This document shows positions 58,469 to 64,000 of a stretch of DNA of 64,000 nt, one piece after another. The notes under the pieces are model-generated. The model was not told where the DNA came from, searched no databases, and saw only the letters and a list, made by a program, of their open reading frames with translations. The position numbers and the translations under genes are program-made. Origin of the DNA: Escherichia coli (GTDB lineage: Bacteria; Pseudomonadota; Gammaproteobacteria; Enterobacterales; Enterobacteriaceae); NCBI RefSeq assembly GCF_044324875.1, contig NZ_CP172185.1. One strand, written 5' to 3'. Each line of letters starts with the position of its first letter. Positions within the stretch are counted from its first letter, which is position 1.

Positions 58469-59571
58469 TGGTAATGGCTAACTTAGATAAAGACCTAGGT
58501 TTGAAGCAAGACGCTATAAGGTTTTGCTTGATAAATGGTTACTTGCCATTTTTAGAAGTTAACGTTGAAAACTATAGGGAACTTTCTGATACATCTACAA
58601 TTATAACAGATGTAGATGTTTTAGGGGTTGCTTTTGATATAACTGGAAAAACCAGAAAGATAATTTTCGATTGTAAAACCATTAAAAATACCAGCCCTAT
58701 TAATAGAGCGTTTTGGGCTTCCGGTGTTATGAATTTTTTAGGCTATGATGAAGCATTCATCATATTAAGAAAGAAAGCAAGTGAGGCCCATAGACTTTCC
58801 GCAAAAACAATTAATGTCCACCTTTTTGATGAAGATCAAATGAAAGGATATGCTCAATCATTTTCAATGAATTTCAATATTGATTTAAGCTACTCTACGG
58901 ACATTAATAATTGGATAAGTATACAGGAAGTATATAAAACAGATAAAACCATCCAAAAATATGGCGAATTTTTAGCAAGTTCGGTTCCTACAGAAAATGA
59001 TCCAGCGAAGAATTTGAGAAGATTTATTGCTGCTTTACAAAAAGTGAAGAATGAACTAGACCCTCAAAAAAATAAACACAGAGCAATTTACTTGCATAGT
59101 CTAATGACATTCTCATATATTATGGCATGCTTAGTGCAGCAACTAAGAGGGTTAATTGATTTTGATTATAATCAGAATGAATTCACAAGACTTCTCAAAT
59201 ATTATATCTGGGGAGGGAAGGATAGCTTTATATTAAGACATAAGATGAGAGAACTAATCTCATCTAATGACAGTTCGATTCAAAATATAGAGCCAGAGTT
59301 AAGGAATTGGGATGACTTTATTGAACTCACAAGGAGTCTACTTGACTCTCCTAATGATATAATTAAATGTTGCCATGTGTTACGTGAATTTAGTTTTTTA
59401 GAACTATCCATGCATGACATTAAAAAGGATGAGCAACTATCCACTCTAATTTCAGATAATTCAAGAATTCGTCAATTTATAATGATAATGGCTAGATACT
59501 TAACCAACTCGATGAAAATGCCAAAAGATTTCATTAACGATCTAGTATCAATATTTGATAGATTGAGATAA
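58468..59571 (+). CDS. hypothetical protein, island operon gene B; N-terminal PD-(D/E)xK-like motif
   Basis: 367-aa ORF; TAATG overlap with gene A (alternative ATG at 58474 has GGAG 8 nt upstream); residues 48-70 TDVDVLGVAF...KIIFDCKT fit hD...(D/E)xK. Confidence 0.75.
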   Translation: MVMANLDKDLGLKQDAIRFCLINGYLPFLEVNVENYRELSDTSTIITDVDVLGVAFDITGKTRKIIFDCKTIKNTSPINRAFWASGVMNFLGYDEAFIILRKKASEAHRLSAKTINVHLFDEDQMKGYAQSFSMNFNIDLSYSTDINNWISIQEVYKTDKTIQKYGEFLASSVPTENDPAKNLRRFIAALQKVKNELDPQKNKHRAIYLHSLMTFSYIMACLVQQLRGLIDFDYNQNEFTRLLKYYIWGGKDSFILRHKMRELISSNDSSIQNIEPELRNWDDFIELTRSLLDSPNDIIKCCHVLREFSFLELSMHDIKKDEQLSTLISDNSRIRQFIMIMARYLTNSMKMPKDFINDLVSIFDRLR

Positions 59572-59708: not shown

Positions 59709-60266
59709 TCAGGAGGCATTCATTTCTTTTTTCACGCGAAACACTGTAGCCCTGCCACAATCGCACAACTTTGCAATCTCATCCGGTGTGTTCTTCCCAG
59801 CTTGAAGCATCTCAATGATTTTACTGTGTAATTCTTTGTTCTTTTGCTTTCCTTTATACTTCTTAGCCTCTTTAGCAAGGGCAATTCCTTCGTTGCGACG
59901 TGATGCGATCATTCCCCGCTCAAATTCTGCAACGGCTCCCATCATGGTTAAGATTAAACGAGATTGTGGGGAGTTATCGAAACTCATTGAGTTAGCAAGG
60001 AACTGAACAGTGATCCCGCGAGCAACGAGGCTATCAATCATTTCCAGCAAATCGCGGGTATTACGTGCAAGGCGATCAATCGAGTGAGTCATGAGCGTAT
60101 CACCTTCGCGGAGGTGTGAAAGCAGGTTCAACAATTCAGGTCTCTCGCTGGTGGACTTACCTGATTCTTTCTCGGTGACGATTTTGTCACAAACAGGTTC
60201 CAGTACTGCCAACTGACGCTCAAGATTCTGATCCTTTGTTGAGACTCTCGCGTAACCAAAAATCAT
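59709..60266 (-). CDS. small serine recombinase (resolvase/invertase family)
   Basis: N-terminal catalytic motif FGYARVSTKDQ with serine nucleophile, C-terminal helix-turn-helix GRATVFRVKKE; start placed at MIFGYARV (ORF-track ATG at 60296 lies inside the dyad sites). Confidence 0.88.
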   Translation of the reverse strand: MIFGYARVSTKDQNLERQLAVLEPVCDKIVTEKESGKSTSERPELLNLLSHLREGDTLMTHSIDRLARNTRDLLEMIDSLVARGITVQFLANSMSFDNSPQSRLILTMMGAVAEFERGMIASRRNEGIALAKEAKKYKGKQKNKELHSKIIEMLQAGKNTPDEIAKLCDCGRATVFRVKKEMNAS

Positions 60267-60288
60267 TTCCCTGCCCTCACCGCTGATA

Positions 60289-60353
60289 AGTATCATTTAA
60301 ATTAACTGAATGATACAGTATCATTTAAATTCTTTCAATGTCTAAATGATACT
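60289..60353. promoter_or_regulatory. tandem dyad-symmetric sites upstream of the recombinase (res/hix-like)
   Basis: Two copies of agtatcatttaaatt (60289-60303, 60317-60331), each paired 11 bp downstream with an inverted half-site (aatgatac 60309-60316; taaatgatact 60343-60353). Confidence 0.6.
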
Positions 60354-60814: not shown

Positions 60815-61174
60815 TCATTCAGAACGATCAAGTACCATATATGCTGGCTGACACATGCTGCCCCGCTCCTGTAGCCAGTAGTAATCAAGATCGGCAACAC
60901 GCACGTCCAATCCAGAATCTACACGGTTGATCTGTAACCGTAGCCCTACAGTATCCTTGTACGATAAACCAGATTTAACATTGTATTTGTACTTAACACC
61001 GTTTTCCTGTTCAAACTGTTTAAGGAAAGGCGTCATTTGTTTCTGAATTTCTTTCAAACAAATAACCTCATTATCAATAGCAAAGGGGGGTTCTGTTTTT
61101 CCATCAGGTACAGCAGCCTGTAAATGAAAGGAAGTACTCAACAATAACAGCATTGCAACAGAAGTCTTTTTCAT
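60815..61174 (-). CDS. hypothetical small secreted protein
   Basis: 119 aa; signal peptide MKKTSVAMLLLLSTSFHLQA then AVP; AAGGAA Shine-Dalgarno; 43 nt downstream of the membrane-protein gene. Confidence 0.7.
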   Translation of the reverse strand: MKKTSVAMLLLLSTSFHLQAAVPDGKTEPPFAIDNEVICLKEIQKQMTPFLKQFEQENGVKYKYNVKSGLSYKDTVGLRLQINRVDSGLDVRVADLDYYWLQERGSMCQPAYMVLDRSE

Positions 61175-61217: not shown

Positions 61218-62258
61218 TTAATAACAATATTTTATATTTCCTTCGGGTTTTCTCATGCATTTAATTCCTTCAGGAATATAATCAGTTACGGGAGCAGGTC
61301 TGGCATCAGGTCTTGAAAGACGATTGGATATAGAAGACAACAGACTGAAAACACACTCATTAAATGATTTTTGATATTTATTTTTTTCATAAAAGTACTG
61401 CATGGTGATTTTATCTCTTTCGTATTGCAATTCTTTGCCAAGCTGAATCCTATCCATATCAATTCCATTTCTCATAGCATTAAATCTTTCGTTCAATAAA
61501 TTAAATTGAGATTTATTCCATTCATTTAAAGGAAATAAAGAATTGTTAAGCCTTTGCCTACAATTAGATTGCTCGATAGCTGACATGTATTCTTTCATAC
61601 TAACGCCAATATCTAAGTATGTGAGTTGTCCAGCAGTTCTATCAACTGAGTTATTAGGGTAAGATTTAATTTCAGTAAGTATTGACTCTGTTAATACTGC
61701 ATTTTCTTCTAAATCTTTGCTAATAGTTATTTGAGCTTGTTCTCTTTTATCCTTATCAAATATTGAAATGTATTTCTTTACTATATCCTGATTAGCTTTC
61801 TCGGCTGCTACTAACGCATCTTGAACCTTCTTTTCCGCCGCTTTAACTCGTTGTTCTTCTACAAATTTCGCGTAGTCATCAGTATTTGTAATGTGATTTT
61901 CACGAGCGATAGAAAACTCTTTACTATCTTTAAAACCAAGTTTTTGTGCTCTGGCTCCATCGCTTGAAGATCGGGCAGAACTTGCCACGAAAGCGAGCAC
62001 AATGATCAGTACAGGAACCGTATAATTATTAACGAGTTTATAGGGTAAGAACTTCGCTTTAAGCGTACCATAACCCAAAACAGCCCAGCCTATCGCGGCA
62101 GTACTTGCCAGTAGCTGGCACAATCCAGCGACGGAAAGCATGATTACCGACCAGAAGCCTGTACCGACTGCGAAAAGATCACCAAATTTCTCCATTGACG
62201 CAAGGAATAAAAACACTCCCCAAATGCCATAAAATCCTATTTTCAAATATTTACTCAC
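61218..62258 (-). CDS. hypothetical membrane protein with coiled-coil-like soluble domain
   Basis: 346 aa, probable GTG start after AGGA; three hydrophobic segments in the first ~95 residues, then a charged Lys/Glu-rich region. Confidence 0.7.
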   Translation of the reverse strand: MSKYLKIGFYGIWGVFLFLASMEKFGDLFAVGTGFWSVIMLSVAGLCQLLASTAAIGWAVLGYGTLKAKFLPYKLVNNYTVPVLIIVLAFVASSARSSSDGARAQKLGFKDSKEFSIARENHITNTDDYAKFVEEQRVKAAEKKVQDALVAAEKANQDIVKKYISIFDKDKREQAQITISKDLEENAVLTESILTEIKSYPNNSVDRTAGQLTYLDIGVSMKEYMSAIEQSNCRQRLNNSLFPLNEWNKSQFNLLNERFNAMRNGIDMDRIQLGKELQYERDKITMQYFYEKNKYQKSFNECVFSLLSSISNRLSRPDARPAPVTDYIPEGIKCMRKPEGNIKYCY

Positions 62259-63241: not shown

Positions 63242-64000
63242 TCATTTTTTGCTTTTTTGTACTTCCTTTTCGTATTTGTTCCACATAGCCTTTTGCTCTT
63301 CGGGACTGAGTGCTGTATTACCACTGGCAAGAAACACCTTGAACGCTTCTAACTCAAGCCCTGGGTTGTGGCTTTTCCAGCGGCGAAAACGCTTAGCGTG
63401 ATTATCATCAAGAGTGAAACGCTTTTGCTTATTCTTTGAACCTTGCGGCCTGCCTCTCGACCTCTGCTCATCATCAATACCGATATCTATATACTCAATA
63501 TTATCTGTAAGAGATCTGGCTTGCCATTCATCAAAAACATAAACAGTCTGTGTTTCAGTACTGTCAAAATCCCTTGAAATTCCTCGTAGTACGAACTGGT
63601 GTAAACTTTCGTACTCCCTCGCAACATGTATCGCCTCGCCGTCAATCTCAAAGAACAATTCGCACTGTTTAGCCTCTGTTTCAGAGGGACGCATACAAGC
63701 GAGCCAGACGCACGTGAGCAAGTGTTGGTACTGGTTAAATCCTCTGGCATCCGGGCTTATCTCTGTGCCGTTCCTTAGGCTCTGAGAATCGCTTTTGTTC
63801 TTCGTCCAGTAGAAATCCTGCCCCTCAAGTTTCTCATCAATAAATGAGTATATTTTTTGTACTTTATCAGGGTTGTTAGTCTTCCATGTCTTTGATAGTT
63901 TGTTGTTTTTTGAGAAGTAATAAACTTTTAATCTGTTTTTGAGTTCAGTTTTTCGTGTCAGTAATCCTTCAAGTTCAGTACTTTCAAAGAGTTCTTTATT
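63242..64000 (-). CDS. hypothetical protein, 5'-truncated by the window end
   Basis: My translation finds the frame of the 159-aa track ORF open for all 93 upstream codons to position 64000 (at least 252 aa); C-terminus has AT-hook-like RGRPQGSKNK. Confidence 0.6.
   Translation of the reverse strand, partial: NKELFESTELEGLLTRKTELKNRLKVYYFSKNNKLSKTWKTNNPDKVQKIYSFIDEKLEGQDFYWTKNKSDSQSLRNGTEISPDARGFNQYQHLLTCVWLACMRPSETEAKQCELFFEIDGEAIHVAREYESLHQFVLRGISRDFDSTETQTVYVFDEWQARSLTDNIEYIDIGIDDEQRSRGRPQGSKNKQKRFTLDDNHAKRFRRWKSHNPGLELEAFKVFLASGNTALSPEEQKAMWNKYEKEVQKSKK

Follow-up and report, generated by a model that had tools for sequence, protein, structure and literature searches.

A winged-helix protein and a predicted PD-(D/E)xK nuclease form a mobile two-gene module and plausible anti-phage defense system in Escherichia coli and other bacteria

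In this study, we analyzed a 64,000-nucleotide (nt) stretch of the Escherichia coli chromosome (contig NZ_CP172185.1, assembly GCF_044324875.1; hereafter, the window), which carries two adjacent genes, A and B, on a genomic island close to nadC. On balance, we favor the view that B is a metal-dependent PD-(D/E)xK endonuclease related to Mrr and Cap4, which is extended by a helical domain, and that the A-B operon serves in defense against phages or other mobile elements. Taken by itself, the nuclease fold of B can be assigned from the structural model with high confidence, and the A-B pair is a plausible anti-phage defense system. We infer a nuclease activity of B, a complex between the two proteins, a sensor role for A, and a function in phage defense. 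Residues of B are numbered here from the ATG at position 58468 (367 amino acids), as in the preliminary description of this DNA, which was made by reading the sequence without database searches. The TAA stop codon of gene A overlaps this start and lies 5 nt before the alternative ATG at 58474. The latter is favored by RefSeq and by the family alignment, and turns the central residues into D46, D66, and K68 of a 365-amino-acid protein. The product of gene B is the same as WP_129560323.1 or differs from it by one residue, and D48, D50, D68, C69, and K70 correspond to D46, D48, D66, C67, and K68 in the numbering of that accession.

The structure of B was predicted with AlphaFold2 on the family alignment, with a mean predicted local distance difference test score (pLDDT) of 88.6 and a predicted template modeling score of 0.88. 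The model runs through a helix (residues 10-22), strands beta1 (26-34), beta2 (45-56), and beta3 (62-70), helix alpha2 (77-91), strand beta4 (95-100), helix alpha3 (106-113), and a last strand (117-121), and is all-helical from residue 122 to 366. The predicted core has the alpha-beta-beta-beta-alpha-beta topology, with a mixed four-stranded sheet, of the PD-(D/E)xK superfamily, as this fold was reportedly described by Steczkiewicz et al. in 2012. Moreover, the model places a conserved acidic residue in the N-terminal part of beta2 and a (D/E)-x-K element on beta3, which is the motif arrangement of the superfamily. The preliminary description had proposed a restriction-endonuclease-like active site near the N-terminus of B and had named structure prediction as a check, with any other fold speaking against the proposal. 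The predicted fold is restriction-endonuclease-like. Together with the conservation of the putative catalytic residues and a published HHblits link to Mrr, both presented below, it supports the proposed site.

Structural comparisons are consistent with this assignment. In Foldseek searches against AFDB50, full-length family members were matched at template modeling scores above 0.9, and the neighbors included proteins labeled in UniProt as 'Cap4-like DNA endonuclease domain' or as Mrr-domain proteins. AspBHI and MspJI were also among the structural neighbors of B. For the helical C-terminal domain, these comparisons and the sequence searches returned no informative relatives outside the family, and we agree with the first reading that the rest of B holds no recognizable motif. 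The same reading had set aside short Rx4-6H strings as non-diagnostic, and rightly so. We considered a HEPN nuclease and rejected it: R101-x6-H108 extends over beta4 and alpha3 within the alpha/beta nuclease domain, whereas the HEPN fold is all-helical; R205 and H210 of R205-x4-H210 are not conserved together; and no HEPN structural matches were obtained.

The codons of the motif lie at window positions 58609-58611 (D48) and 58669-58677 (D68-C69-K70), and translation of positions 58606-58683 yields TDVDVLGVAFDITGKTRKIIFDCKTI. The interval 58609-58680, to which the motif had been assigned, does contain it and encodes D48-T71; the 25-residue string quoted along with it corresponds to T47-T71, and its leading threonine is encoded one codon upstream of that interval. 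Two further details of the preliminary description agree with the model. The D-C-K triplet closes a hydrophobic strand, beta3, and the acidic stretch FLEVNVENYRE lies upstream of the motif, at residues 28-38, where it contains E30 on beta1. Two others have to be corrected. The distance between the aspartates, given as about 17 residues, is 20 from D48 to D68 and 18 from D50 to D68, and D48 sits near the start of beta2 in the model, not at the end of a hydrophobic strand.

As a bare string, the motif alone does not exceed chance expectation. Of the shuffled gene B sequences, 95% contain the pattern D-x10-30-[DE]-x-K, as do 32 of the 51 open reading frames (ORFs) of at least 150 amino acids in the window. 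When its hydrophobic context is included, the pattern is retained in 21% of the shuffles and in 2 of the 51 ORFs. The motif rises above chance because it is invariant across a divergent family and falls within a predicted nuclease fold.

The gene B family comprises 213 clusters at 90% identity and 290 representatives at 50% identity, all of them unannotated and none with a Pfam domain. Among 41 close relatives, the invariant positions are E30, T47, D48, D50, D68, C69, K70, T71, S76, N79, R80, and W83. In a diverse set of 38 homologues, with a mean column identity of 24%, K13, T47, D48, D50, C69, and G250 are still invariant. Position 68 is D in 37 of these proteins and E in the other one, position 70 is K in 34 (R in two, S in one, and G in one), and position 30 is E in 32 and D in three. 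Hence, the most conserved positions of the family are the proposed catalytic residues. Cys69 (window positions 58672-58674), at the middle of D-x-K, is found in all 38 diverse homologues; in PD-(D/E)xK enzymes this position is usually occupied by a variable hydrophobic residue. To our knowledge, there is no citable precedent for an invariant cysteine at the 'x' of D-x-K, for TDxD, or for S-P-x-N-R-x-x-W as family signatures.

These data also bear on the idea that the nuclease fold is catalytically dead, or the motif match fortuitous, and that B is only a binding or scaffold protein. The high frequency of the bare motif by chance, the fact that K70 is not universal, and the lack of a Pfam nuclease family at threshold would all fit this explanation. 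Nevertheless, we consider it very improbable, since across phyla no other residues of the protein are better conserved than those of the motif, which fall exactly on beta2 and beta3, and inactivated PD-(D/E)xK domains normally lose their catalytic residues.

Sequence libraries were searched both with the single proteins and with family profiles. Gene B remained below threshold for the Pfam families Mrr_cat, Mrr_cat_2, and Cap4_nuclease, and the match to Mrr_cat was weak (E-value 1.6e-3 or weaker) and confined to 3 of the 38 homologues. Alignment with hhalign of the nuclease-domain profile to the single sequences of EcoKMrr and of Klebsiella LmuA was not significant (probability 0.2-0.3); the EcoKMrr alignment set D-C-K against Q-A-K, a register to which we give no weight. 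Similarly, a homologue search with the N-terminal-domain profile recovered only fragments of the gene B family and no annotated relatives. In PADLOC-DB v2.0.0, gene A had no match, and gene B matched only PD-T4-9_C (E-value 0.0093). We discarded this match as noise, as it covers 62 residues of the helical domain. Matches to Hemocyanin_N, YpfM, and thioltransferase, as well as HerA and LmuA matches to the recombinases, were likewise dismissed as noise.

A link between B and defense has been drawn before by automatic means. In their Table S10, DeWeirdt, Mahoney and Laub (Science 2026; PMC13092281) list WP_129560323.1 as a 'Predicted novel defense gene', with a mean DefensePredictor log-odds of 8.80. 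The HHblits match given for this protein is UniRef50_Q9FCF7, which is a type IV restriction enzyme and carries an Mrr_cat_2 domain (probability 96.8%, over the N-terminal 35% of the query; PMC13092281). As presented there, Table S10 contains predictions over 3,000 E. coli genomes and not validated systems (PMC13092281). This table entry was the only one that we found in the literature on the accessions and on winged-helix plus Mrr-like defense pairs. The nuclease call on gene B is not new, as it had already been made automatically in the UniProt names of relatives and in the DefensePredictor table. On the other hand, we found no description or validation of the two-gene architecture, of its occurrence across several phyla, or of the kind of protein that gene A encodes.

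Gene B does not travel alone. A homologue of gene A lies directly upstream of B, on the same strand and with gaps of -8 to +8 nt, in every intact locus examined. These loci came from E. coli, Klebsiella michiganensis, Pseudomonas, Thalassotalea, Duganella, Rhodoferax, Nostoc, a Streptomyces plasmid, and two metagenome contigs. Even where B is most divergent (20-25% identity), the proteins encoded upstream are A-like by hhalign, at 99.7% (E-value 6.8e-26) and 99.6% (E-value 1.4e-24). No third conserved gene was found, and the downstream genes vary at every locus examined. The coupling of A and B is obligate, and the only copy of B seen without an upstream A is a decayed one. This copy is located on plasmid pFORC13 of Bacillus cereus (Bacillota), where a 249-amino-acid ORF remains (L017 6001-7041) and the tblastn alignment covers residues 3-353. 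Of the two partners, A is always the better conserved: paired identities of A and B were 65/53, 57/42, 52/40, and 33/25%, and the mean column identity over comparable taxa was 66% for A and 54% for B.

The A-B pair spans Proteobacteria, Cyanobacteria, and Actinobacteria, and is found on islands and plasmids. Homologues were detected on 11 plasmids, and a set of 50,697 phage genomes contained none. Within E. coli, the A-B stretch is present in 6 of 5426 complete genomes, each time with at least 99% identity. In Klebsiella michiganensis, the pair occupies the same nadC-proximal site as in E. coli, with a resolvase gene alongside (L012 13657-14277). In Pseudomonas it resides within an integrase-bearing island, in Duganella it adjoins an AAA_15/DUF3696 ATPase, in Nostoc a reverse transcriptase and a UvrD-RNaseT gene are found nearby, and in locus L011 its neighbor is a DEAD/ResIII helicase. 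These contexts are typical of accessory or defense cargo, and A-B is a self-contained, horizontally moving module.

The presence of serine recombinases on the flanks of A-B in E. coli and Klebsiella, and of an adjoining transposase in Thalassotalea and in locus L010, is also what might be seen if B were a structure-specific or transposition nuclease (TnsA-, Hjc-, or NucS-like) acting with a DNA-binding partner in recombination, resolution, or repair of a mobile element. Such a housekeeping role is improbable. The flanking recombinases and transposases vary by locus and are missing in several, so that no recombinase co-evolves with A-B, and no inverted repeats or element ends tied to A-B were found. 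In addition, the rare and patchy occurrence of the module in E. coli genomes is typical of accessory defense genes.

We also considered a toxin-antitoxin-like addiction module that stabilizes the mobile element, with B as a nuclease toxin, A as its neutralizer or autoregulator, and no dedicated anti-phage role. The tight two-gene operon with a putative regulator upstream, the location on islands and plasmids, and the existence of a decayed B without A agree with such a module, and winged-helix proteins are often transcriptional autoregulators. However, gene A, with 425 amino acids and four domains, greatly exceeds typical antitoxins in both size and conservation. Moreover, the pair is also chromosomal without mobile-element genes, and DefensePredictor scores B as defensive in the table cited above. 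For these reasons, an addiction module is unlikely; many toxin-antitoxin-like modules are defense systems anyway, so this explanation overlaps with a defense role of A-B.

Regarding gene A, its model (pLDDT 73) contains four helix-helix-helix-hairpin units, read as tandem winged-helix domains, at about residues 29-97, 120-178, 200-264, and 276-353, followed by a low-confidence stretch (374-410) and an acidic C-terminal helix. The structural matches of the protein are winged-helix only, and no Walker A or other nucleoside triphosphatase (NTPase) motif was found in it. Gene A encodes a mildly acidic protein overall (isoelectric point about 5.7-6.0), in which only residues 269-373 are basic (net charge +6) and the tail is acidic. 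The strong conservation of A favors a conserved ligand or a large interface with B and speaks against sequence-specific recognition of a variable kind. The stretch 374-410 (window positions 58304-58411) has a pLDDT of 27-46 and is presumably disordered, yet it holds the invariant peptide KDEKYIQS (Y394-I395-Q396-S397). This peptide may be a partner-binding element and could dock on gene B.

In the mechanism that we propose, A and B would be made together from one operon. B would be the DNA-cleaving effector, with an active site built from D48 (perhaps D50), D68, and K70, plus E30. In turn, A would act as a sensor or regulator independent of nucleoside triphosphates (NTPs), which would bind either a phage cue or a conserved feature of the invading nucleic acid and would then target or release B. 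Two modes can be envisaged. A could free or activate B upon a cue, much as nucleases are guarded in Hachiman or Lamassu but with no need for ATP, or A-B could be a constitutive, type IV-like enzyme that reads modified DNA.

If only the latter mode applied, A-B would be a split type IV modification-dependent restriction enzyme. In a constitutive A-B complex, A would read modified bases (e.g., methylated, hydroxymethylated, glucosylated, or phosphorothioated) and B would cut, giving direct immunity without abortive infection or trigger release. Several observations suit such an enzyme. The closest remote sequence homologue of B, according to the HHblits entry above, is a type IV Mrr-domain enzyme, and its structural neighbors AspBHI and MspJI are modification-dependent. 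EcoKMrr itself joins an N-terminal winged-helix DNA-binding part to a C-terminal Mrr_cat domain. Furthermore, no methyltransferase gene adjoins A-B in the E. coli, Klebsiella, Pseudomonas, Thalassotalea, Duganella, Rhodoferax, and Nostoc loci, as expected for type IV systems. However, conservation is higher in A than in B throughout, three of the four recognition helices predicted in A lack basic character, and the large conserved helical domain of B is not present in known Mrr-type enzymes. Altogether, we regard a split type IV enzyme as a rather doubtful explanation of the module.

We return to A-B as a defense operon with B as its nuclease, against which several points weigh. At threshold, the A and B proteins have no match in Pfam, NCBIfam, PADLOC v2, PHROGs, or PDB sequences, and the nuclease-fold assignment rests on predicted structure and remote homology. 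The grouping of D48, D50, D68, K70, and E30 is a candidate one, taken from the secondary-structure positions of the model, and K70 is swapped for R, S, or G in 4 of the 38 diverse members. On the side of gene A, the predicted recognition helices of three of the four winged-helix domains are not basic and the protein is mildly acidic overall, which makes DNA binding by A uncertain. As for the genomic contexts, the Rhodoferax pair stands among housekeeping genes with no defense neighbors. Finally, conserved A and B peptides were not found in the searched supplement text of the DefensePredictor study, including its table of validated proteins (PMC13092281).

More tentatively, A-B could represent a new NTP-independent immune class. 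In such a system, a four-winged-helix reader of a phage protein or of a conserved physical feature of invading DNA (such as free ends, an unusual conformation, or a modified base) would license an Mrr-like nuclease through the helical domain of B, possibly via KDEKYIQS, and the invariant cysteine might be a redox or metal switch. If a defense role is confirmed, A-B would be a compact and widespread two-protein defense system whose sensor consists of winged-helix domains only and uses no NTP, unlike Lamassu, Hachiman, Gabija, and HerA-DUF4297. ATPase- or helicase-guarded nucleases, as found in these four systems, dominate current models. The proposal would also provide a testable function, and residues for mutagenesis, for two families that are not modeled in Pfam, NCBIfam, or PADLOC. 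Assigning B to the nucleases is in itself nothing unusual, as no effector domain is commoner in defense islands than PD-(D/E)xK.

The coordinates of both genes and of the elements of B are collected in Table 1.

Table 1. Positions in the window of genes A and B and of the predicted domains and conserved elements of B.
Feature	Position	Strand	Remarks
Gene A	57191..58468	+	425 amino acids; alternative GTG 57182 gives 428 amino acids
Gene B	58474..59571	+	365 amino acids; alternative ATG 58468 gives 367 amino acids
Predicted PD-(D/E)xK (restriction-endonuclease-like) nuclease domain	58480..58839	+	Residues about 5-124; alpha-beta-beta-beta-alpha-beta
Predicted all-helical C-terminal domain	58840..59568	+	Residues about 125-367; conserved G249-G250, W281, Y344
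E30, candidate third acidic residue	58555..58557	+	Strand beta1
T47-D48-V49-D50, putative 'D' of PD-(D/E)xK	58606..58617	+	N-terminal part of beta2; T47, D48, and D50 each in 38/38
D68-C69-K70-T71, putative (D/E)xK element	58669..58680	+	End of beta3
S76-P-I-N79-R80-x-x-W83, family-specific	58693..58716	+	Start of alpha2 (helix 77-91), beside the predicted active-site hairpin; S76 35/38, R80 37/38, W83 37/38

The window is identified as E. coli chromosome by aroP, ampE, ampD, and nadC. Past nadC, a GC content of about 0.53 gives way to one of 0.32-0.34, and ppdD is split by an island of about 9.6 kb, matching the RefSeq record. What remains of ppdD on the near side is an 84-nt ORF for the prepilin N-terminus (56764-56847), with the junction after ...GTGGTCATT (56812 onward). 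The rest of ppdD resumes after a 519-amino-acid large serine recombinase, past the window end (L001 19794-21802). In addition to A and B, the island carries a small serine recombinase gene, two further hypothetical genes, and a helicase-like gene annotated as 'type III restriction subunit R'. The small serine recombinase (59709-60296, minus strand) is encoded directly downstream of A-B in convergent orientation; it is invertase/resolvase-like, with Mpi/XisF-type NCBIfam matches below cutoff. The two hypothetical genes are also on the minus strand and have no PADLOC or NCBIfam match. One (60815-61174) encodes a 119-amino-acid protein with an N-terminal signal-like hydrophobic segment, and the other (61218-62258) a 346-amino-acid protein that has membrane-like helices at its N-terminus and a charged coiled region. 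The helicase-like 476-amino-acid 'type III restriction endonuclease subunit R' (63242-64000, minus strand; L001 18243-19676) is encoded at the island's far end and is cut by the window end. Neither PADLOC nor NCBIfam gave a significant match to this gene, and no methyltransferase adjoins it.

The corresponding island of Klebsiella contains a Lamassu-like trio (L012 14694-18102), made up of a 394-amino-acid Cap4_nuclease protein, a 159-amino-acid protein, and a 583-amino-acid SMC_N protein. A CI-like repressor and a DUF3800 gene are found in this island as well. Given this content, the nadC-proximal site behaves as a defense-island hotspot.

With respect to known systems, the model and the motif make B a member of the PD-(D/E)xK superfamily, and it is not a sequence-level member of Mrr_cat, of Cap4_nuclease, or of any PADLOC system. 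The Mrr and Mrr_cat_2 type IV enzymes (Pfam CL0236) resemble B in the predicted core fold and in the D...(D/E/Q)xK motif on the beta2-beta3 hairpin and, like A-B, have no adjacent methyltransferase. Unlike in Mrr, the nuclease of B is N-terminal, and after it comes a helical domain of about 245 amino acids, which is absent from Mrr. Moreover, the winged-helix part is much larger and forms a protein of its own, gene A, and B has the invariant cysteine inside D-x-K and the TDxD motif. The CRISPR (clustered regularly interspaced short palindromic repeats) ancillary nucleases Can2, Card1, and Can1, as well as AF1548, share with B only the common nuclease core, at 9-16% identity, and B has neither a CARF domain nor a CRISPR association.

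Hachiman (HamA and HamB) is also a two-gene operon that combines a PD-(D/E)xK-type effector with a larger partner, which is proposed to hold the effector back or to license it. In contrast to HamB, A has no helicase or NTPase domain, and neither PADLOC HamA/HamB nor Pfam matches were obtained for the DUF1837 nuclease and helicase of this system. Finally, the Cap4 and DUF4297-type nucleases, that is, Cap4 of the cyclic oligonucleotide-based antiphage signaling system (CBASS), LmuA of Lamassu, and HerA-DUF4297, resemble B in having an N-terminal PD-(D/E)xK nuclease, a regulatory C-terminal domain, and a controlling partner, and a true LmuA is encoded in the same Klebsiella island as A-B. B does not match the Pfam Cap4_nuclease model or the PADLOC LmuA and DUF4297 models, and neither A nor B matches PADLOC LmuA or LmuB. 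The partner A, winged-helix only and without Walker A, is not an SMC or HerA ATPase and not a cyclic-nucleotide sensor. Thus, A-B differs from the Cap4, LmuA, and DUF4297 layout in its controlling partner, which is a winged-helix array instead of an SMC, HerA, or helicase ATPase.

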